Shown in pieces: positions 26,407 through 64,000 of a stretch of 64,000 nt of DNA. The position numbers and the translations under genes were made by a program. This DNA is from Sedimentisphaerales bacterium (lineage in GTDB: Bacteria > Planctomycetota > Phycisphaerae > Sedimentisphaerales > UBA12454), in assembly GCA_050014075.1 (NCBI GenBank), contig JBEKEA010000001.1, positions 53,764 through 117,763 of the forward strand. The letters are read 5' to 3'. The first letter of the stretch is position 1, and every line of letters begins with the position of its first letter. A model generated the notes under the pieces. It saw only the letters and a list, made by a program, of their open reading frames with translations. It was not told the DNA's origin and did no database searches.

Positions 26407-27651
26407 ATGCCATTTAAAACACTTGGTCTTTCAGACCCATTAGTGCGGGGTATTCTTGCCACCGGCTATACTGCTCCTACCGAAATTCAGTCTCAGGTAA
26501 TTCCGGCCGCCATTGAAGGCAAAGATATCATCGGATGCGCACAGACGGGCACAGGCAAAACAGCGGCTTTTGTGCTGCCGATATTAAACCGGCTCAGCCA
26601 TGAACACGCAGCCAAGAACAAACATATAAAAGCGCTGATTCTCACGCCGACCCGCGAACTGGCGGTTCAAATCGAACAGTGTGTCATCGGTTACGGACGA
26701 TTTTTGAATATGCGAACTCTTGCTGTTTATGGAGGCGTAAGTATAGGAGCGCAGTTTTCGGCGCTTCGGCGCGGCGTCGATATTATTGTCGCTACACCCG
26801 GAAGACTTTTGGACCATATGTATCGGAGAAGTATCGACCTGAGGCATGTTGAAGTGCTGGTTCTGGATGAGGCAGACCGGATGTTCGATATGGGCTTCAT
26901 TAACGATGTTCGCAAAATCATCGCCGCTGTGCCGGAGAACCGTCAAACGCTTCTTTTTTCAGCTACCATACCGCAGGAAGTAAAAAACCTCGCCGCGGGA
27001 ATACAGAAACATCCGAAAATAATTCAGATTGGTCAGCAGCATAATCCAATCGATACCATTACGCAGCACATCTACCCTGTAAGCAAAGAGCAGAAACTGG
27101 ATCTCCTGATGTATATGCTGCAGAAGGGCGGAATGTATAGCGTTCTTGTTTTTTCGCGCACAAAACACGGCGCGGATAAAATCAGTCATCGGCTTGACCG
27201 GGCAGGGATTAAATCCATCGCGATACACTCCGGCCGAACGCAGGGCCAGCGCAGCCGAGCGATGGAAGGTTTTAAAGCTAATAAATTTCAGGTTATGGTT
27301 GCGACAGATATCGCAGCACGAGGAATAGATGTTGAGGGAATTTCACACGTCGTAAACTTCGATGTGCCGGCATTCGCGGAGGACTATATCCATCGCATCG
27401 GCAGAACAGGCAGAGCCGAGGCCAAGGGCGACGCGATTACTTTAGTTTCGCGAGATGAAGACAAATATCTGCGCCAGATTGAAAGGTTCATCGGCTGCAA
27501 ATTTAAAATGGAAAGATGTCCCGGCTTTGGTTACACATCGCCGCCTATGCCGACTAGACAATCTGAAGAAAGACCTCATACGGCAGCGCACGGGCATAAA
27601 TTTACTACTCCGGGTAAAAAACGATTTCGCTCCAGCTGGCGGCGAAGATAA
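26407..27651 (+). CDS. DEAD-box RNA helicase (RhlE-like)
   Basis: AQTGTGKT, PTRELA, DEAD, SAT, HRIGRTGRA. Confidence 0.95.
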   Translation: MPFKTLGLSDPLVRGILATGYTAPTEIQSQVIPAAIEGKDIIGCAQTGTGKTAAFVLPILNRLSHEHAAKNKHIKALILTPTRELAVQIEQCVIGYGRFLNMRTLAVYGGVSIGAQFSALRRGVDIIVATPGRLLDHMYRRSIDLRHVEVLVLDEADRMFDMGFINDVRKIIAAVPENRQTLLFSATIPQEVKNLAAGIQKHPKIIQIGQQHNPIDTITQHIYPVSKEQKLDLLMYMLQKGGMYSVLVFSRTKHGADKISHRLDRAGIKSIAIHSGRTQGQRSRAMEGFKANKFQVMVATDIAARGIDVEGISHVVNFDVPAFAEDYIHRIGRTGRAEAKGDAITLVSRDEDKYLRQIERFIGCKFKMERCPGFGYTSPPMPTRQSEERPHTAAHGHKFTTPGKKRFRSSWRRR

Positions 27652-27660
27652 TCAATTTTT

Positions 27661-28446
27661 TTATTCTTCGTAGCCGCTAAAGGGAACCCACATACTTTTC
27701 TCAGTTCCAATTACGGTGCTGTAAGTATGGAGCATTCCAAAATTGGAGCAGCGAATCGAATACCAGTTTATATCCTTATTATGCGCCAGTTCCTCTTTGA
27801 TTTCATCTTCCACAACAACGCTGGACTTTTCCTGGGTATGCATCTTCTCGATAATATAGTCCTGGTCTGCGTCGGTCAGGAAAGAATACACGGGGCTTAT
27901 CGAGTGCCTGTCAACGAGGTCAACGATATCTTCCGGGAATATTTCCGCTTTGGGGTCAATTTCAATGTCCATTATGCTCAATTGGCCGAATAATCCTTTT
28001 TGCTGCTTACCCTTTGAAGAAGGATATGTAGTCAGGCAAGGCACTTCTATTTTAAAGATAACATCGGTCTGGGCCCTGACGGAAGGAGTTCGGACTGAAT
28101 ATCTGCACAGGTATCGGACGAGACATTTTTCATGAGATTTGGGCGTAATTTTTTCTATGAAGAAAGGATAATCGAAATCGATATTGACGCGCGAGGCCGA
28201 AAGCTTCGTCACATAGTCGGCGATATTGCTTCTGAGCGTTTTTGTTCCGATTCTTTCGCGGTGCTGATGCAAAACGCCGATGAATGTATCAATCCATCTG
28301 GCTTCGAATTCGTGCATAATCCTTGCGCTAATGGAAATATTGGCGATGGTCTGCTGGCCGTCAGGATTTGCTTTGGAAAGCACCTTCATCGGGAATGGAA
28401 GGTTTTTCATGCCGACATCGACGAGAAATCTTTTTTCTTCAGTCAT
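27661..28446 (-). CDS. GTP cyclohydrolase IB (FolE2)-fold protein with degenerate active site
   Basis: Family-like scaffold (DVGMKNL.FP, FDYPFFIEKITPKS, SPVYSFL). Canonical CPCS, AHNQ and ESIH appear as YPSS, LFGQ and GMLH. Confidence 0.75.
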   Translation of the reverse strand: MTEEKRFLVDVGMKNLPFPMKVLSKANPDGQQTIANISISARIMHEFEARWIDTFIGVLHQHRERIGTKTLRSNIADYVTKLSASRVNIDFDYPFFIEKITPKSHEKCLVRYLCRYSVRTPSVRAQTDVIFKIEVPCLTTYPSSKGKQQKGLFGQLSIMDIEIDPKAEIFPEDIVDLVDRHSISPVYSFLTDADQDYIIEKMHTQEKSSVVVEDEIKEELAHNKDINWYSIRCSNFGMLHTYSTVIGTEKSMWVPFSGYEE

Positions 28447-29518
28447 TTTTTACTCCTTTATTTTTCAGGGCTTCAATCTGTGAAGCCAAAATCCGCCATT
28501 TATTAATTTTCAAACCAAACACTTCTATATCGCTTGTTTTATCAGCAAAATTCCAAATCTGCTGTTTTTTATCTATTTCATTACCGAGTTTCAATCCGAG
28601 AAATTCAAACTTTTTACATACATCGCCGATAATCGGCTGGAACTGTTCCAGATTTTCGCTGAAAAACACAATCGCGTCAAGCCCGCCGAGCATTGAAATA
28701 AAGCTGCCGATGTATTTAACAACATTATACAGATAAATTTCCCGCGCGAAATCTTTTTTCACATTTCTTTTGCCGCTGATAACGTCAAATAAATCGGTTT
28801 TTTCGCCTGTCAGTGCCATAAAGCCGCTTTGGCTCGAAAGAAGCTGATTAATCTGCTCAAACCGCATTCCCATCGAATGCAGATAAAATATAATTGTCGG
28901 GTCAATATCGCCGCAGCTTGTGCCGGACAGTATTCCCTCTGTCGGAGTAAAGCCCATACTCGAATCAACGGGCAGGCCGTCTTTTACGGCTGTGATGTTC
29001 GTATGCTCATCCAGATGGACGCAAATAATCCTTTGCGAGCTGTTTTTAATCAGCGGCTTTATATGTTTTGATGCCCAGGAGTGAAAAAGACCGAATCTTC
29101 CGGTACGCCTTATGCCTTTGTCACTAAGCTGATACGGCACAGCGTAGCTGCTGACTTCGGCGGGCAAATCGAGGAAAAAGGCGGTATCGCAAAGAAGGAT
29201 ATGCGACAGGTTCGGCAGTATATCAATATAATAGCCGGCTGTTTTGGCGGTTACATCGTTGAATTCGGGCAGGAATCCAACGCATTTTTCCAGCTCTTTT
29301 ATGTTCTGTGCAGACAAAAAAGACGCGGGCTTTTTAATAATTTCGCCGCCATGATGTAAAAAATACCCGATTGATTCAATCTTTTCAAAGTTGTTTGTGC
29401 TTTTCTCAACGGCTTTTTGCCAATCCGACCGTAACGAGCATTTTCCCTCAGTGAGAATTTCTCCCTGGACCTTGCACCAATGTAAATTAACGGTATCGGA
29501 ATCAAAAAGCAGTATCAT
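28439..29518 (-). CDS. Degenerate acetate kinase-fold protein
   Basis: Retains HGG, DTAF and SMGFTPTEG...GDIDP; lacks GHR, YGFHG, HLGNG, GTR, GIGEN and the terminal EE. Confidence 0.75.
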   Translation of the reverse strand: MILLFDSDTVNLHWCKVQGEILTEGKCSLRSDWQKAVEKSTNNFEKIESIGYFLHHGGEIIKKPASFLSAQNIKELEKCVGFLPEFNDVTAKTAGYYIDILPNLSHILLCDTAFFLDLPAEVSSYAVPYQLSDKGIRRTGRFGLFHSWASKHIKPLIKNSSQRIICVHLDEHTNITAVKDGLPVDSSMGFTPTEGILSGTSCGDIDPTIIFYLHSMGMRFEQINQLLSSQSGFMALTGEKTDLFDVISGKRNVKKDFAREIYLYNVVKYIGSFISMLGGLDAIVFFSENLEQFQPIIGDVCKKFEFLGLKLGNEIDKKQQIWNFADKTSDIEVFGLKINKWRILASQIEALKNKGVKND

Positions 29519-30732
29519 CGGGTTTTATCTCCTGCTTTGTTGGACAAATTTAATCCCTCTAAACAAATAACCCTCTCCTCATCGGCGGGAATACAAAGAA
29601 CAGCCGCTGGAGAGTTTTCTTCACTAAGTCTGGCTATCTGCTTACCGTTATAATCGCGGTTTGCGGCGCTGTTCAATGCAATGCCGCACCAATCCATATT
29701 CTCACAAACCTTTTCTCTGACCTGCCAGTTATATACGCCAATATCATCTGTAAAAACAAGAACATCTGCCCCGCCGAGAATCGCGGCGTAACCGCCGATG
29801 TATTTTCTTATTCGATAAATATACATATTAAAGGCGAGGTCGGCCTGGTCTTTGTCCTCGGGCGAAGTGTTTTTCATAATGTCCCTGATATCGCTTGAAA
29901 AACCTGAAATTCCCAGTAGGCCGCTTTTTTTTGTCAAAAGGTCGAGTAAGTCATCCGGTCGATATCCATATACACTCATCAGATATACCGTAAGCATAGG
30001 GTCAATATCTCCGCAACGAGTGCTCATAACAAGACCTGTAAGAGGAGAATAACCCATTGAAGTATCAACCGAATGGCCGTCTTTGATGGCCGCAATGCTC
30101 GAGCCGCCAGTGCCGAGATGACAAGCGATGATTTTTAGTTTTTCCGGAGAGGTTTTAAAAAAGCGTCCCGTTTCGAGAAGAACATTCAAATAAGACAAGC
30201 CGTGAAAGCCGTATTTACGATAATTGAGTTTTTCCGTTACGACGGGGGGCAATGCATAAGTGTAAGCGACGGCAGGCAGAGAGGAATGAAAGGCCGAATC
30301 AAAAGTTACATATTGTTTTACATCCGGCAGCGTTCGCTGGCATTCATGAATAACACTAAGCGAAACGGGATTATGAATAGGCGCAAGCGGCAGGCACAAT
30401 TGCAGTTTTCTTAAAGTTTCATCATTAATAAAATCTGAATTTACGAAATAGTTCCCGCCGTGCACAAACCGATGACCAATAAGATCGATACCGATTTTGT
30501 CTTTTAAACTTTTTAATATAAAAGCAGCGGCGTCTTTATGAGTTTTAAGGGGAATAATATCCTTCACGGAGTTTGAGCCGATTTTGTGCTCGATAAAAGA
30601 AGGTTCTGTGCCGGTTACTCCTACGCGATGGGCTTTTCCTGATGCAATCGCTTCGATAGCCCCGGAAACAGATGCCTTATAAACTTTATAAGTGAGCGAC
30701 GAACTGCCGCAGTTAAAAACTAAAATGTTCAA
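29515..30732 (-). CDS. Acetate/propionate kinase family protein, atypical nucleotide-site motifs
   Basis: NCGSSS, GHRFVHGG, FDSAFH, YGFHG, HLGTGGSS, TRCGDIDP, FTDDIG, DEE; TTG start. Confidence 0.9.
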   Translation of the reverse strand: MNILVFNCGSSSLTYKVYKASVSGAIEAIASGKAHRVGVTGTEPSFIEHKIGSNSVKDIIPLKTHKDAAAFILKSLKDKIGIDLIGHRFVHGGNYFVNSDFINDETLRKLQLCLPLAPIHNPVSLSVIHECQRTLPDVKQYVTFDSAFHSSLPAVAYTYALPPVVTEKLNYRKYGFHGLSYLNVLLETGRFFKTSPEKLKIIACHLGTGGSSIAAIKDGHSVDTSMGYSPLTGLVMSTRCGDIDPMLTVYLMSVYGYRPDDLLDLLTKKSGLLGISGFSSDIRDIMKNTSPEDKDQADLAFNMYIYRIRKYIGGYAAILGGADVLVFTDDIGVYNWQVREKVCENMDWCGIALNSAANRDYNGKQIARLSEENSPAAVLCIPADEERVICLEGLNLSNKAGDKTR

Positions 30733-30869
30733 GTTTAAATCCCTATGAAAAATCCCGCTATCAGCCTTATAGAATAAGTGAATTTCCCGCTGACAGCAAA
30801 GAAAAAAAGGAAATCAGAAATGGTCCTGGTTTCATAAGGAAATAAAAAGGTTTTTCCCTGTTTGAATCT

Positions 30870-32357
30870 TTAGGCGGCGCGGAGACGGAATAATTGCATT
30901 AATCTATCGCTGATAGGAGTTTTTCCTGCCGGCAGGTCGCGGGTGAGCCACTTACCATTTCGCATCGTCAAAACCGCCCAAATGCTTATCCACCACAATC
31001 CCGACAGCCAGAACAGGCCATAGGCGTAAGACCAAATCGCTTCTGAACTTCGGCGTCGCAGCAAATAGAAAACGGCAGGCGCCGTTGATGCGATTACCGC
31101 TCCAAACAAAACCTGCGACAAATATACGCTGGGCTGCACAAGCATCCAGCCGGCAACAGCGAAAACAAGTATTCGCGACACGACGGGATTAATAAAAGAT
31201 ACTATGAAGTTGACTCTTGCCCCGCTTGTGTCTTTGCGGAATTTTTTAAACATAAATTTAACCATTACCCATGTTTCACGCACATTGCTCCTGGACCAGC
31301 GGAGCAGCATCTTGCACAACTGGCCGTATTCTGTCGGCACCATAGTATAAACTACGGCGTTAGACTGAAATCTAACATCGTAACCGTTTTTCAGGACGAT
31401 ATTGGTTATTGCCCTGTCTTCGCCGATGGTGGCGGGCTGACCGAGAAATGTCTGATGAACCCAGTCTTTGAGATCTTTTATTACAACGCTTTTTCGATAA
31501 GCGCTTAGAGCTCCGGGGGTGCAGAAAACGGTATTGACCATACTTTGGCTTGCGCGAATGAAATCAAAACTATATGCGAAAGAAACCTCTAGCATCTTCG
31601 GAATAATTCCATCTCTGCGGTTGAGAACGCGAACGCTGCCGGCCACTGCGCCTATTTTGGAATCGGATACAAACGGACTGACAAGCCTCCGAATAGTCTG
31701 TCGTTCAATTATCGAATCGCTGTCTATTGTTACAACAATATCTCCCCTGCCGCGAATTATGCCTTCGTATAACGCTGCGCGTTTGCCGCGATTCTTTTTA
31801 AAGTTTATCATTTCAATCCTGCCGGCGGATTCTGCGCAGGCTTTTTGAATCCATGAAAGAGTGTCGTCTGCGCTGCCATCATTGATAGCAATGATTTGAA
31901 GTTTATTGATTGGATAATCGCTTTTTAAAACGCTTCGCAGCGTTTTGAGCATATGTTTGCCTTCGTTGTAAGCAGGCACAATCACTGTGCATCGCGGCAA
32001 CTGTTCATCGGTGCAGCTTCGCACGGGTCTGTAACCCAATACAAGCAGAACTCGCCAGAGGAACACTATAACATTTGATAACAGGAGCGCACGGAAAGAA
32101 TAAAAAAACATCCAGCCTGTCCGGCTCATACGGAGTTCTTCGAGCATGGCCCTGAAATCCGCAAGAGTCAAAAAACCGCTGTATATAATCATCGCCGTTA
32201 TAAGCGCAATACAAATCTTTGCTGAAGAATCCGTTGTCAGCGGAAGACTTATACTGCTGCGATATGCACCGCCAAACCGCGGCGAATAAATTGCGAGCCT
32301 GCTGGTCGGAGTTGTAACTGCACCGTAACCCTGAAAAAACTTCTTAACATCAAACAT
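30870..32357 (-). CDS. Processive GT2 glycosyltransferase (hyaluronan synthase/NodC-like)
   Basis: VPAYNE, NDGS, GKR, DSD, GEDR, LLRW; N- and C-terminal TM segments. Start position uncertain. Confidence 0.88.
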   Translation of the reverse strand: MFDVKKFFQGYGAVTTPTSRLAIYSPRFGGAYRSSISLPLTTDSSAKICIALITAMIIYSGFLTLADFRAMLEELRMSRTGWMFFYSFRALLLSNVIVFLWRVLLVLGYRPVRSCTDEQLPRCTVIVPAYNEGKHMLKTLRSVLKSDYPINKLQIIAINDGSADDTLSWIQKACAESAGRIEMINFKKNRGKRAALYEGIIRGRGDIVVTIDSDSIIERQTIRRLVSPFVSDSKIGAVAGSVRVLNRRDGIIPKMLEVSFAYSFDFIRASQSMVNTVFCTPGALSAYRKSVVIKDLKDWVHQTFLGQPATIGEDRAITNIVLKNGYDVRFQSNAVVYTMVPTEYGQLCKMLLRWSRSNVRETWVMVKFMFKKFRKDTSGARVNFIVSFINPVVSRILVFAVAGWMLVQPSVYLSQVLFGAVIASTAPAVFYLLRRRSSEAIWSYAYGLFWLSGLWWISIWAVLTMRNGKWLTRDLPAGKTPISDRLMQLFRLRAA

Positions 32358-32730
32358 TAGAAACTTCCTCCAGCCTGCCAGCAGCTGGTTATATGGATAT
32401 ATGGCGTGAAATATATGTTGTTCTTAACAGGATATGAAATCCACTTTCTTCCTGCGGTTTCTTACATATATACGAAAAATAATATTATATCAAAAAATAT
32501 GCTAAAAATCAAACAAAAAAAACAGAATATCCTCTTTTTTTGATTAAAATTAAGCTTTTTACCATTATTATTACTGAATAATTGAGGATTGTGCCGGCAT
32601 TAATAAATACAAATTATGATTACTCCGCCGATATCGTCTGGCGGGTGAGGGTGGGAAAAAACGTGCATTGCAACCTGGAAGTGTTAAAATGTGGCGGAAT
32701 TGATTTTGAGACGGTGAATGGAAAACGATA

Positions 32731-33312
32731 ATGCGATTTATAAAATTTATCAGAGAATTCTTAAAAAACCCAAAAGAGGTCGGGGCAGTGGCTGAAAGTT
32801 CAGGGTTTCTGGCCAGGAAAATGGCACAGCAGATGAACGGAGCAACTAACGTAGTTGAATTCGGGCCCGGAACCGGTTCTGTTACAACGGAAATTTTGCG
32901 TCATCTGCCGAAAAACGGCAAGCTGACCTGCTTTGAAATCAATTCCAATTTCTGCGAACGCCTGAAATCAATAAAGGATTCACGGCTGAAAGTCATCAAT
33001 GACGATGTGCAGAACTGCGGCAAATATGTCGAACAATTCGATTGTGTTCTATCCAGCCTGCCTTTGGCGACATTTGGCAAATCAGATAGAGAAAAAATAA
33101 TTGCTTTGTCCAGCAGGAGCAAAACCTATATTCAGTTTCAATACAATCCATTCCTTAAGCCGAAACTGAAACAGTATTTTCATGACGTAAAAATGAAATT
33201 TGTTCCATTGAATATTCCCCCGGCATTTGTTTACATTTCAAAAAATCCAAAAAATAAAGCCGGGCAACCCAAATTTAACAATCAACAAAATATTGAAGCT
33301 AAAATTCTTTAG
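32731..33312 (+). CDS. Class I SAM-dependent methyltransferase, phospholipid/ornithine-lipid N-methyltransferase-like
   Basis: VGAVAESS..LA, VEFGPGTG, SSLP, QFQY, NIPPA. Confidence 0.8.
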   Translation: MRFIKFIREFLKNPKEVGAVAESSGFLARKMAQQMNGATNVVEFGPGTGSVTTEILRHLPKNGKLTCFEINSNFCERLKSIKDSRLKVINDDVQNCGKYVEQFDCVLSSLPLATFGKSDREKIIALSSRSKTYIQFQYNPFLKPKLKQYFHDVKMKFVPLNIPPAFVYISKNPKNKAGQPKFNNQQNIEAKIL

Positions 33313-53249: not shown

Positions 53250-54440
53250 ATGAAAATTCTGGTTATTAACGCCGGCAGCAGTTCAATCAAGTATCAGTTA
53301 TTTGAAATGCCCGCCGAAAAAGTCATCGCAAGAGGTTTGCTGGAAAAAATCGGCGAAGAAACCTCGAAATTGACCCATAGTTACGATTCGAAAGTCCATA
53401 AAACCAAGGCAAAGGCGGCAGACCATTTGGCCGGCATGAAAATAATTCTCGACACTCTCACTGATCCGCAGATTGGCGTGATAAAAGACATATCCGAGAT
53501 TTCAGCGGTTGGGCACAGAGTCGTTCACGGCGGAGAAGCGTTTACAGACTCTGTCGTCATCAATCAGAAAGTTATAGATTCAATTGAAAAATTCGCCGAC
53601 CTTGCGCCGCTGCATAATCCGCCTAATCTGACCGGTATCAGGGCCGCCCAAAAAGACCTTCCCAATGCGATACAGGTTGCCTGTTTCGACACAGCCTTTC
53701 ATACAACAATTCCCAAAGTGGCTTATATTTATGCGCTGCCTTACGATATTTATGAAAAATTTCGCGTCCGGCGATATGGTTTTCACGGAACCAGTCATAA
53801 ATATGTTGCCCGCAGGTGCGCCGCGATAATGGGCAGAGATAAATATGATATAAATGTAATTACCTGCCATCTGGGCAACGGCTGTTCTATCACCGCGGTA
53901 AAAGCCGGCAAAAGTATCGATACTTCGATGGGACTTACTCCGCTGGAAGGCCTTGTGATGGGAACCCGTAGCGGAGATTTCGACCCAGCGATTTTGTTTT
54001 ACTTGGCTGAAAAAGGCTACAGCGTCGAGCAGCTTAATAATATGTGCAACAAGCAAAGCGGACTGCTCGGCATATCAGGTGTTTCGAACGATATGCGAAA
54101 CTTGCGCGAGCAGGCACAGGCCGGAAACGAAAGAGCGCAACTTGCTTTCGATATTTTCTGCTACAGGATAAAAAAATACATCGGCGCATATACCGCCGCG
54201 CTGGGCAAACTGGATGCAATAGTTTTCACCGGCGGAATCGGCGAAAACGCTCCCGATGTCAGGGCACAGTGCTGCAATGACCTCGAACAGATTGGCGTCA
54301 GCATAGACCCGGCCGCGAACGTGGAAACAAATCGCGTCGAAGGGCTTATAACATCCGCCGACAGCAGGGTAAAAGTTTTTGTTATTCCCACAAATGAAGA
54401 ATTGGCGATAGCACAGGACACATTCGCACTGGCAAAATAA
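53250..54440 (+). CDS. ackA: Acetate kinase, canonical ATP type
   Basis: NAGSSSIKY, GHRVVHGG, FDTAFH, YGFHG, HLGNG, GTRSGD, GGIGEN, TNEE. Confidence 0.97.
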   Translation: MKILVINAGSSSIKYQLFEMPAEKVIARGLLEKIGEETSKLTHSYDSKVHKTKAKAADHLAGMKIILDTLTDPQIGVIKDISEISAVGHRVVHGGEAFTDSVVINQKVIDSIEKFADLAPLHNPPNLTGIRAAQKDLPNAIQVACFDTAFHTTIPKVAYIYALPYDIYEKFRVRRYGFHGTSHKYVARRCAAIMGRDKYDINVITCHLGNGCSITAVKAGKSIDTSMGLTPLEGLVMGTRSGDFDPAILFYLAEKGYSVEQLNNMCNKQSGLLGISGVSNDMRNLREQAQAGNERAQLAFDIFCYRIKKYIGAYTAALGKLDAIVFTGGIGENAPDVRAQCCNDLEQIGVSIDPAANVETNRVEGLITSADSRVKVFVIPTNEELAIAQDTFALAK

Positions 54441-54465: not shown

Positions 54466-55104
54466 ATGAAAAAATCGGCGATTATCATAGCCATTCTGTT
54501 ATTCACCGCAGGCTGCGACAGTCTTTATTACGCCACAATGGAAAAATTAGGCAAAGCCAAACGGGACATTCTTGTTGACCGTGTAAAAAGTGCCCGCGAC
54601 GCGCAGGAGCAGACAAAAGAACAATTCGCCTCGGCATTGGATAAATTTCGAAGCGTCGTAAACGTCCCTGCCGGCAAACTGCAGGAAAAATACGACCTGC
54701 TCAAAGGCGAGCTTGATAAAAGCGAAGCAAAAGCCGCCGCAGTTAAAAAACGCATTGCCGATGTTGAAGATGTCGCCAACGCCCTCTTTGACGAATGGAC
54801 AAAAGAACTCGACCAGTATAAGAACGCCGACTTGAGAGCCGAAAGCAAAAAGAAGCTGGACCAGACCCGCCAGAAATACACGCTGTTAATCAACGCAATG
54901 AAAAAAGCCGACAGCAAAATCGAGCCGGTTTTATCGGCATTTCGCGACCAGGTATTATTCTTAAAGCATAATCTCAACGCACAGGCCGTCGCTTCACTTC
55001 AAAGCGAAGTAACTACAATGGAAGCCGATACAGGCAAATTGATAGAGGAAATGGAAAAATCAATCGCCGAAGCCGATACCTTCATCAAAACTATGCAGGA
55101 ATAA
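54466..55104 (+). CDS. DUF2959-like lipoprotein
   Basis: Lipobox TAGC; YYATMEKLG..KRDILVDRV; FLKHNLNAQA. Confidence 0.85.
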   Translation: MKKSAIIIAILLFTAGCDSLYYATMEKLGKAKRDILVDRVKSARDAQEQTKEQFASALDKFRSVVNVPAGKLQEKYDLLKGELDKSEAKAAAVKKRIADVEDVANALFDEWTKELDQYKNADLRAESKKKLDQTRQKYTLLINAMKKADSKIEPVLSAFRDQVLFLKHNLNAQAVASLQSEVTTMEADTGKLIEEMEKSIAEADTFIKTMQE

Positions 55105-62550: not shown

Positions 62551-63672
62551 TTAGTTCCCAAAGTAGGTATTGACTGCTCTTGCCGCTTTTATCAGAGGTG
62601 AATTTATCGGCACAGTCCTTGTCTTGCCCGCAACCTGCGATAATGGAACGCTCGAAAGTTTTCCATTTTTCATAACTACCAGGCGATTTTTAATTCCGTT
62701 TACAAGCAATTCCATCGCCTCAAAGCCGAAACTCGTCGCCAGTATCCTGTCGTAAGGTGTCGGCGTTCCTCCTCGCTGGATATATCCTAAAGTTACGCTT
62801 CTCGCCTCAAGTTTTGTCGCCTGTTCAATCTGCCCCGCAAGTTTATTTGCGATTCCGCCAAGTCTTATCGGTTCGGGGCTATACGCAATTGTTTCCCTGA
62901 CGACCATTTTCCCGCCGAGTTCTTTTGCGCCTTCAGCGACAACTATAATGCTGTAGCTTTTGCCCCAGCTATTTCGTTTCATCGCAAAGTCGCAGACCTT
63001 TTCGAGTCTGTATGGAATTTCAGGAATAAGAATAACATCAGCGCCGCTTGCCACTCCCGAATGCAGAGCAATCCAGCCGGCGTATCTGCCCATCACTTCG
63101 ACAACCATAACGCGATGATGTGAGCTTGCCGTAGTCCGTAGTTTATCAATTGCCTCGGTTGCGGTTGTTACTGCCGTATCAAATCCGAAAGTAACCTCGG
63201 TGCCCCAAAGGTCGTTATCTATTGTTTTTGGCACGCCCATTACTGTCAGTCCTTTTTTCGCCAGCCCCGCCGCGCAAGTCTGCGTCCCATCCCCGCCGAT
63301 ACAAACGAGTGCGTCAATATTTTTGCTCTTCAAAGTTCGAATGCACGAATCCGATACGTCTTTTAATATTACTTTGCCCTGCGGTGAGCCTGTCGAACCG
63401 CCTGTTCTGCTTTCAACCGGATATTTAAACGGATTAGATGTATTATTTGACCCGAGAATTGTTCCGCCCAATGAAAGAATATGGCTGACATTCTCATAGC
63501 TCAGCGGATGGAGTCTTTTTTCGATAAGTCCCAGGAATCCGTCTTCGATTCCCCATACTTTTATGTCGTATTTTGATATCGCCGCCTTTGTTACAGCGCG
63601 GATAACGGCGTTTAGACCCGGACAATCCCCGCCTCCCGTCATTACCGCAATTGTTTTAATTTTATGCACCAT
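62551..63672 (-). CDS. pfkA: 6-phosphofructokinase (PfkA family)
   Basis: TGGGDCPGLN, GGDGT, PKTIDND, EVMGR, GYIQRGG; start at MVHKI. Confidence 0.95.
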   Translation of the reverse strand: MVHKIKTIAVMTGGGDCPGLNAVIRAVTKAAISKYDIKVWGIEDGFLGLIEKRLHPLSYENVSHILSLGGTILGSNNTSNPFKYPVESRTGGSTGSPQGKVILKDVSDSCIRTLKSKNIDALVCIGGDGTQTCAAGLAKKGLTVMGVPKTIDNDLWGTEVTFGFDTAVTTATEAIDKLRTTASSHHRVMVVEVMGRYAGWIALHSGVASGADVILIPEIPYRLEKVCDFAMKRNSWGKSYSIIVVAEGAKELGGKMVVRETIAYSPEPIRLGGIANKLAGQIEQATKLEARSVTLGYIQRGGTPTPYDRILATSFGFEAMELLVNGIKNRLVVMKNGKLSSVPLSQVAGKTRTVPINSPLIKAARAVNTYFGN

Positions 63673-63676
63673 ATTA

Positions 63677-64000
63677 TTACTTATTCTGAATAGACTTTTT
63701 CGCTGCCGCGGCAACCGCATCAGCCGTAATACCGAACTTTTCGTAGCAGACTTTATACGGTGCCGAAACGCCGAATCCGCTCATACCGATAAATTCGCCT
63801 CTATCGCCGATATATTTCTCCCAGCCCATTTTAATTCCCGCTTCGACCGCCACTCTTGCCTTAACACTTGGCGGCAGCACAGAATCTTTATACGCCTTAT
63901 CCTGCTGCTCGAACAATTCCCAGCTCGCAAGATTAACGACCTGCGCCTTTATATTTTCAGCCGCAAGTTTCTCCGCGGCCTTCATCGCGATTTCAAGTTC
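63677..64000 (-). CDS. tkt: Transketolase, C-terminal part (N-terminus outside the window)
   Basis: ELFEQQDKAYKDSVLP, VAVEAG, FGVSAP. Confidence 0.9.
   Translation of the reverse strand, partial: ELEIAMKAAEKLAAENIKAQVVNLASWELFEQQDKAYKDSVLPPSVKARVAVEAGIKMGWEKYIGDRGEFIGMSGFGVSAPYKVCYEKFGITADAVAAAAKKSIQNK

Follow-up and report, generated by a model that had tools for sequence, protein, structure and literature searches.

The acetate kinase (ACK) of Entamoeba histolytica (EhACK; EC 2.7.2.12, PDB 4H0O) was described in 2017 as the only known ACK that uses inorganic pyrophosphate (PPi) or phosphate (Pi) (PMC5517563), and a report of 2018 likewise gives E. histolytica as the sole source of PPi-dependent ACK (PMC5931981). 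The enzyme works in a setting of PPi-dependent phosphofructokinase (PPi-PFK) along with pyruvate phosphate dikinase (PPDK), as described in PMC5931981 and PMC9983610. A later paper names Entamoeba as the organism in which PPi was suggested to come from a PPi-dependent ACK, and dismisses such an enzyme for C. thermocellum only because the single ack gene there is ATP-dependent (PMC8863071, 2022). PPi-dependent ACK has been treated in the literature as the curiosity of one parasite, and the source of PPi in bacteria with PPi-dependent glycolysis is an open problem. Here, we analyse a bacterial gene, ACK1, whose product belongs to the same clade as EhACK. It lies at 29515..30732 on the minus strand of a 64,000-nucleotide stretch of DNA, hereafter the window, which covers positions 53,764 to 117,763 of contig JBEKEA010000001.1 (assembly GCA_050014075.1) from an uncultured, probably anaerobic Sedimentisphaerales bacterium of the Phycisphaerae.

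In the account of EhACK given in PMC5517563, whose Figure 1 legend identifies 4H0O as the E. histolytica enzyme, Gly203 is an insertion that lengthens the PHOSPHATE2 loop into the active site, and its deletion abolishes activity. Gln323 and Met324 are said there to narrow the adenosine pocket, which the Asp272-Arg274 pair may narrow further. Five occluding residues, T201, D322, Q323, M324 and E327, are named in PMC5931981. A search of the main texts of open-access and bioRxiv papers returned none on bacterial members of the clade of PPi-dependent ACKs, nor on the degenerate paralog and FolE2-like partner described below.

ACK1 and the Gly-insert clade

ACK1 (405 aa, TTG start) matches PF00871 along its full length (profile positions 2-391 of 392; 357.8 bits, cut-off 22) and TIGR00016 with 362.6 bits, above the curated cut-off of 293.4. 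The window also harbours an ordinary ackA gene (53250..54440, plus strand; 396 aa, TIGR00016 538.5 bits), whose product is 40% identical to ACK1 in a pairwise alignment. Relative to ackA, the Lys residue of PHOSPHATE1 is replaced by Thr in ACK1 (NAGSSSIKY to NCGSSSLTY), PHOSPHATE2 has Thr in place of Asn and one inserted Gly (CHLGN-GCS to CHLGTGGSS), and the ADENOSINE motif FTGGIGEN has become FTDDIGVYN. An earlier inspection of the letters alone, the sequence-only reading, had singled out these three differences, and all three are present exactly as it gave them. Its statement that the catalytic Arg, Asp, His and Glu residues are kept also holds: N7, R88, H120, D145, H177, R239 and E385 of ACK1 are retained and invariant in an alignment of 68 sequences of the clade. 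We take these to be the catalytic set Asn7, Arg91, His123, Asp148, His180, Arg241 and Glu384 in the numbering of the Methanosarcina thermophila enzyme (MtACK). The positions of the acetate pocket are ordinary and acetate-sized in both the pairwise and the 68-sequence alignments. The AlphaFold2 model of ACK1 (predicted local distance difference test, pLDDT, 89.3; predicted template-modelling score, pTM, 0.89) has the two-domain ASKHA fold, with query-normalised template-modelling scores (TM) of 0.80-0.84 to the best-ranked ACK structures. In the Foldseek comparison of this model with the PDB, acetate and propionate kinases all scored about equally (TM about 0.8), and 4h0o had the top identity (44-46%) but ranked 6th by E-value.

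Among all solved structures, the best relative of ACK1 by sequence is 4h0o_A (352.3 bits, E 3e-104), which is also named as the E. histolytica enzyme in a cluster listing, followed by the Porphyromonas 6ioy (296.6 bits), Thermotoga 2iir (287.2 bits) and Methanosarcina 1g99/1tuu (279 bits) structures. BLASTP aligned ACK1 with EhACK (P0271) at 47% identity over 399 residues (E 2e-118), a resemblance that these scores place far beyond chance. The residue numbering of this alignment agrees with that of PMC5517563. The sequence-only reading had ascribed a HLGTGGSS-type loop to the amoebal enzyme. Such a loop is real: Thr201-Gly202-Gly203 of EhACK lie in a HLGTGGSS stretch that aligns, in 4h0o_A, with the identical loop of ACK1. 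The Asp-led adenosine motif that it named for the amoebal enzyme is matched in part by ACK1. Asp322-Gln323-Met324-Gly-Leu-Glu327 of EhACK (FTDQMG in 4h0o) aligns to Asp329-Asp330-Ile331-Gly-Val-Tyr334 of ACK1, such that the leading Asp is kept but the residues at 323, 324 and 327 are replaced.

A word-indexed homolog search scored 7,999 candidates, 6,537 of them at E <= 0.001, and motifs were counted in the best 120. These are 57-92% identical to ACK1 and all annotated just as acetate/propionate family kinases; their named sources are metagenome-assembled genomes (MAGs) of Phycisphaerae, Sedimentisphaerales, Omnitrophota, Kiritimatiellae, Bacteroidota, Ignavibacteria, Elusimicrobia and Brevinematales. 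The pattern HLGTGG[SA]S occurs in 119 of the 120 (HLGTGGSS in 106, HLGTGGAS in 13), FTDx[IVLM]G in all of them and FTDD[IVLM]G in 117. HLGNG, FT[GA]G[IVLM]G and a PHOSPHATE1 Lys after GSSSx were each found in 0/120. Judged by these counts, the altered motifs characterise the clade throughout. An exhaustive search of 1.84 billion cluster representatives yielded 14,498 proteins that match ACK1 at E <= 0.001. The Gly insert is present in 18 of the best 150 of these matches, including those of E. dispar/E. histolytica (P0126/P0271), Mastigella eilhardi (P0127) and Mastigamoeba balamuthi (P0141). As sampled by these searches, the Gly-insert clade is large and spans many bacterial phyla. Ordinary-type ACK domains were also seen at residues ~165-565 of longer proteins of 570-776 aa (P0132, P0135, P0138, P0140, P0142, P0145, P0148 and P0155), with an N-terminal extension and, in some, ~200 more C-terminal residues.

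Three quick IQ-TREE runs (LG+C20+F+G4, no outgroup, with support from the SH-like approximate likelihood ratio test, SH-aLRT, only) all agree. In the 74-row tree, 36 canonical and 38 Gly-insert rows are split at one branch (SH-aLRT 93). A clade of 36 rows (97) holds both Entamoeba and ACK1, the latter within a subclade of 22 bacterial rows (96). The canonical/Gly-insert split reaches 98 in a 44-row tree, and the Gly-insert group is still one clade (96) in a tree to which nine rows of the ACK2 paralog were added. In that last tree, Entamoeba is grouped with Mastigella, Mastigamoeba and a metagenome protein (85). The ordinary ackA of the window falls in the canonical group in all three trees, and the Entamoeba branch is long, with 0.73-1.29 changes per column in the 74- and 44-row trees. 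Aligned and placed in trees with EhACK and ATP-type enzymes, ACK1 is thus found outside the ordinary ACKs and inside the clade of Entamoeba, Mastigella and Mastigamoeba. The kinship with the amoebal gene that the sequence-only reading had considered possible holds at the level of this clade but does not extend to the closest relationship, as the ACK1 subclade is not the sister of the amoebal genes in these trees. Because of these groupings, the archamoebal genes appear to be nested among bacterial ones, in agreement with PMC8136499, where acetate kinase is listed among the ancestral gene acquisitions of Archamoebae. The Gly-insert clade would then fix the bacterial origin of the archamoebal gene, as far as trees with no outgroup allow.

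The ACK1-ACK2-FolE2L unit

ACK1 is followed by two genes on the same strand. The start of the first, ACK2 (28439..29518, minus strand; 359 aa), overlaps the ACK1 stop by 4 nt, and the start of the second, FolE2L (27661..28446, minus strand; 261 aa), overlaps the ACK2 stop by 8 nt. With such overlaps, ACK1 is predicted to be translationally coupled to ACK2 and FolE2L.

ACK2 is a degenerate ACK paralog. It can still be assigned to the fold family by PF00871 (183.9 bits, profile positions 75-360), and its TIGR00016 score, 178 bits, is under the cut-off of 293. The PHOSPHATE1, PHOSPHATE2 and ADENOSINE motifs are replaced, as are the equivalents of Arg91, His180, Asn211, Arg241 and Glu384, and the N-terminal domain has a deletion of ~28 residues. 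These losses are seen in five ACK2 rows aligned beside ACK1, EhACK and ackA and throughout a 28-row ACK2 alignment, in which ACK2 has conserved motifs of its own. In the tree that includes them, the ACK2 rows all cluster together with support 100, and their long branch lies outside the canonical and the Gly-insert group alike. ACK2 is, by these replacements, a catalytically dead protein. Since ACKs are homodimers, it is probably the dimer partner of ACK1, as a non-catalytic subunit.

FolE2L belongs to the FolE2/GCHY-1 family (T-fold). It aligns to FolE2 over its full length and matches PF02649 with 87.8 bits, and NF010200, the NCBIfam model of FolE2, with 69.3 bits (cut-off 215); in the Protein Atlas, just generic FolE2 clusters were found for it. 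Compared with the solved FolE2 chains 2r5r and 3d2o, LCPCSK has become TTYPSSK, AHNQRS has become LFGQLS and ESIHNHS has become GMLHTYS. The LCPCSK, HNQR and ESIHxH motifs are present in 11/11 ordinary FolE2 genes of other Planctomycetota and in 0/36 FolE2L sequences. The lost Cys and His residues are those that we take to form the metal and catalytic site of FolE2. The genome encodes a canonical FolE elsewhere (262 bits), and a profile search detected no other PF02649 gene in it. Together with the loss of the FolE2 motifs, the presence of this FolE led us to reject FolE2L as the GTP cyclohydrolase I of the organism. FolE2L is nevertheless the most conserved member of the trio, with 57-69% identity across 80 metagenome loci and a mean column identity of 73% over 36 sequences, and it has strongly conserved motifs of its own, including an invariant C-terminal stretch. 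A complex prediction for ACK2 with FolE2L, based on their own alignments (28 and 36 rows) and run without controls, scored 0.24 against a mark of 0.32, which speaks neither for nor against binding.

The ACK1-ACK2-FolE2L trio is a conserved three-gene unit that recurs across phyla. A genome collection was scanned with the ACK1 alignment, using peptide patterns that also fit ordinary ACKs; the 80 loci listed are no census. Six of them belong to the Gly-insert group: L001-L004 (55-57% identical to ACK1), L005 (48%) and L006 (45%). The first four come from Acidobacteria, Phycisphaerales, Anaerolineaceae and Myxococcales MAGs, that is, from four phyla. ACK2 is directly downstream of ACK1 in all four, FolE2L is adjacent in three (downstream in two, upstream in one), and the genes that flank the trio vary between loci. 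When metagenomes were scanned with FolE2L, 177 relatives turned up, and the analysis covered the best 80; some of these loci are near-duplicates from related samples, and the following counts are hence not independent. ACK2 is directly upstream of FolE2L in 43/80 loci, with ACK1 further upstream in 34 of the 43, a contig edge in the other 9, and no case without ACK1. ACK1 is directly downstream of FolE2L in 2/80 loci. No ACK gene was found in 17/80 loci despite at least 600 nt of visible upstream sequence, and 16/80 were too short to judge. No FolE2L-type match was found in 300 other Planctomycetota species genomes (524 bits in the source genome, <=128 bits in 24 others), which indicates that the module is patchily distributed.

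In the remaining two of the 80 loci, FolE2L directly follows a long-form pta (AAA_26-DRTGG-PTA) and an ordinary ackA (TIGR00016 540 bits), with neither ACK1 nor ACK2 (L135:1593-5786 and L151:1492-5786); in L135, a phosphoglucose isomerase gene follows. Such an arrangement suggests that FolE2L is tied to the acetyl-phosphate node generally. In 3 of the 17 loci without an ACK gene, an acetylating acetaldehyde dehydrogenase is encoded directly upstream of FolE2L (L172:1023-3517, L175:3335-5774 and L178:3335-5774), with 572-580 bits to the N-terminal half of AdhE. FolE2L may therefore be an accessory of the acetyl-CoA/acetyl-phosphate/acetaldehyde node, perhaps regulatory or ligand-binding. A Mrp/complex-I-type antiporter-like subunit is encoded downstream of FolE2L in L172, L178 and L167.

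Several individual loci deserve mention. The acidobacterial locus L001 has its trio arranged as FolE2L-ACK1-ACK2. Divergently upstream lies an ADP-forming acetyl-CoA synthetase-like gene (CoA_binding, Succ_CoA_lig, ATP-grasp_5; L001:2828-5011, minus strand), and a further ACK-like gene, 35% identical to ACK1, is on the opposite strand (L001:10643-11863, minus strand). Two FolE2L genes are arranged tail to tail on a 1.9-kb metagenome contig (L168:34-1637), the second being 55% identical to the FolE2L of the window. ACK1 is split over two frames in L114:2731-3929, by a frameshift or an assembly error, and the ACK2 of L117:3865-4989 has a 23-residue insertion. A stop codon is found within the ACK2 stretch of L127:3938-5005, and a second ACK2-like fragment follows FolE2L in the same locus (L127:6700-7260).

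On the other side of the unit, a GT2 membrane glycosyltransferase gene (30870-32357, minus strand; 495 aa, NodC/PgaC-like, TIGR04242 167 bits, sub-cut-off) is on the strand of ACK1, 137 nt upstream of it. We rejected it as a member of the module, given that none of the 80 genome loci (L001-L080) gave a tblastn match to it with E <= 1e-5 and >50 bits. A promoter and terminator scan of 27300-32800 showed the strongest promoter-like site before the GT2 gene (32512-32484) and none in the 137-nt gap before ACK1, with counts near those of shuffles that are uninformative on the transcription unit. A 212-aa open reading frame right after the ordinary ackA (54466-55104, plus strand) has no NCBIfam match.

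Metabolic setting and competing explanations

The source genome (2.36 Mb, 81 contigs, 95% complete) has three ACK-family genes and one pta. It also encodes a membrane H+-pumping pyrophosphatase (H+-PPase; 802 bits), a PPDK (1268 bits) and two phosphofructokinases (PFKs) on the contig of the window. One PFK, of the ATP/mixed subfamily, is in the window (62551-63720, minus strand; NF002872 396 bits). The other, of the PPi subfamily, is ~17 kb before it (L089:1264-2475, minus strand; NF010675 468 bits, cut-off 273). No soluble PPase was found in this 95%-complete genome in a search confined to family I, and no phosphoketolase, as a source of acetyl phosphate, matched over the cut-off. With a separate ordinary ackA, a single pta, H+-PPase, PPi-PFK and PPDK, and no family-I PPase found, it is plausible that ACK1 has diverged in function from ackA.

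On balance, we lean towards ACK1 being a bacterial acetate kinase of the Pi/PPi type, with PPi formed from the acetyl phosphate that phosphotransacetylase (Pta) supplies, alongside an ATP-forming AckA. Its in-line phosphoryl-transfer machinery and acetate pocket would be retained, and its nucleotide site altered by the longer PHOSPHATE2, Thr for Asn and Asp-Asp for Gly-Gly. We propose that, with its nucleotide site so altered, ACK1 takes Pi rather than ADP as the acceptor (acetyl phosphate + Pi -> acetate + PPi). Of the acetyl phosphate provided by Pta, AckA would then draw ATP and ACK1 would draw PPi, the latter feeding the PPi-type PFK and PPDK, or the membrane H+-PPase. ACK2 would serve as the second subunit of a normally homodimeric enzyme, and FolE2L, which would be no GTP cyclohydrolase, would act as an accessory at the acetyl-CoA/acetyl-phosphate/acetaldehyde node.

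Several observations weigh against this proposal. Only 2/5 of the occluding residues of EhACK are identical in ACK1 (Thr201 and Asp322). Position 323 is an Asp, that is, not a Gly, and both Gly residues of the ATP-type ADENOSINE motif are gone, but ACK1 has Tyr at 327 and, like ATP enzymes, Ile at 324. Furthermore, as reported in PMC5517563, Q323G/M324I and other variants of EhACK gained no ATP use, and MtACK G331Q/I332M gained no PPi use. The published swaps failed to convert specificity in either direction, and the shared motifs are hence correlates and not proof; the determinants of PPi use are not understood. The comparison of folds cannot discriminate the phosphoryl donor for the model of ACK1, and EhACK, the sole characterised relative in the clade, is only 47% identical to it. 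The gene context is not uniform either. In the more distant loci L005 and L006, the Gly-insert gene stands alone, with neither ACK2 nor FolE2L. Conversely, FolE2L is not strictly tied to the two ACK genes, since 17/64 assessable loci have no flanking ACK gene and 2 have an ordinary ackA. Unlike the Entamoeba gene, members of the ACK1 subclade are always followed by the dead paralog and usually accompanied by FolE2L, and this partnership, missing in Entamoeba, makes a different acceptor or regulation possible for ACK1. Lastly, in four other genomes with the trio, an H+-PPase is encoded in 3/4 and a PPi-PFK over the cut-off in 2/4, compared with 4 and 0, respectively, of 14 control genomes; lacking a proper background, this context is only suggestive.

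A more far-reaching version of the proposal is speculative, and we put it forward tentatively. ACK1, ACK2 and FolE2L might form an undescribed heteromeric enzyme, widespread in anaerobic bacteria of many phyla, that from acetyl phosphate makes PPi or charges another, non-adenylate acceptor held by FolE2L. It could be the missing substrate-level source of PPi for bacterial PPi-dependent glycolysis, the stand-alone Entamoeba enzyme being a transferred, simplified offshoot of what bacteria had invented.

Alternatively, ACK1 might be a second nucleotide-dependent acetate/propionate kinase isozyme, working with ATP or a different NTP, for instance GTP, in which case its likeness to EhACK would reflect ancestry and PPi use might be amoebal only. 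The ordinary catalytic residues and acetate pocket, the Ile at 324, the mutagenesis, by which specificity is not set by the named motif residues on their own, and the length of the Entamoeba branch are all compatible with such an isozyme. We consider it rather unlikely, however, as the Gly insertion, Thr201 and Asp322 recur throughout the clade, in the three archamoebal genera too, Asp stands for each Gly of the nucleotide-binding FTGGIG in 117/120 homologs, and the genome already has an ordinary ackA. A purpose other than acetate or PPi turnover, such as the use of another small acid, or the sensing of acetyl phosphate or of a nucleotide bound to FolE2L to control flux at the acetyl-CoA node, has a somewhat smaller chance still. 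It would account for the loss of catalytic motifs in two of the three conserved partners, for FolE2L being the member under the tightest conservation, and for its occurrence beside pta-ackA and acetaldehyde dehydrogenase genes without ACK1 or ACK2. Nevertheless, ACK1 keeps all catalytic residues and an acetate-sized pocket, which points to a working enzyme, and the annotated loci show no conserved transcription factor or signalling domain next to the trio. It is very improbable that ACK2 and FolE2L are duplicates in decay, on their way to becoming pseudogenes, and that ACK1 works on its own like EhACK: both have lost their family motifs, but their frames are intact, order and orientation are kept in four named phyla and dozens of metagenome loci, FolE2L identity stays high between loci, ACK2 has conserved motifs of its own, and in the window the start and stop codons still overlap.

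If the activity that we favour for ACK1, PPi formation from acetyl phosphate, is shared by the bacterial clade, anaerobic bacteria with PPi-dependent glycolysis would commonly form PPi at the substrate level from acetyl phosphate. The clade would then offer dozens of natural variants for working out what really decides between Pi/PPi and ADP/ATP use, which mutagenesis has missed. In ACK2 and FolE2L, it would provide an unexplored example of pseudoenzymes that accompany a kinase of central metabolism.

Comparison with known systems

EhACK is the closest described system, of the same family and clade as ACK1. Beyond the PHOSPHATE2 loop, the two proteins have in common SSSLTY in PHOSPHATE1 and the WQVR stretch (FTDQMG..WQVR in EhACK), and the positions of Asp272 and Arg274 are Asp and Arg in ACK1 as well. 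Their cellular settings are alike in that PPi-PFK and PPDK are present in both. The differences are that ACK1 is bacterial, that Q323, M324 and E327 of EhACK are D, I and Y, that the genome of ACK1 has Pta as a source of acetyl phosphate whereas Entamoeba is described in PMC9983610 as having neither PTA nor XFP, and that the ACK1 gene is coupled to ACK2 and FolE2L, whereas the recombinant EhACK of PMC9983610 was assayed as a purified single protein.

Ordinary AckA, represented by the M. thermophila enzyme (1G99/1TUY) and by the ackA of the window, is of similar length and has the same fold (TM 0.84 to 1g99) and the catalytic Asn, Arg, His, Asp, Arg and Glu in common with ACK1. Its PHOSPHATE2 lacks one residue relative to ACK1 and carries Asn instead of Thr; its ADENOSINE motif is FTGGIGEN instead of FTDDIGVYN; it has the PHOSPHATE1 Lys where ACK1 has Thr; and the two types fall on opposite sides of the main tree split. 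FolE2L, for its part, has its Pfam family and a full-length alignment in common with GTP cyclohydrolase IB (FolE2, PF02649; 3D2O, 2R5R), from which it differs by the absence of the LCPCSK, HNQR and ESIHxH motifs in 36/36 sequences. As regards ACK2, prozymes are dead paralogs that serve as partner subunits of enzymes. As in these pseudoenzymes, a dead paralog is here retained next to the active enzyme of a family whose members are normally homo-oligomers, and the two are conserved together, with the difference that any binding or activation of ACK1 by ACK2 is hypothetical.

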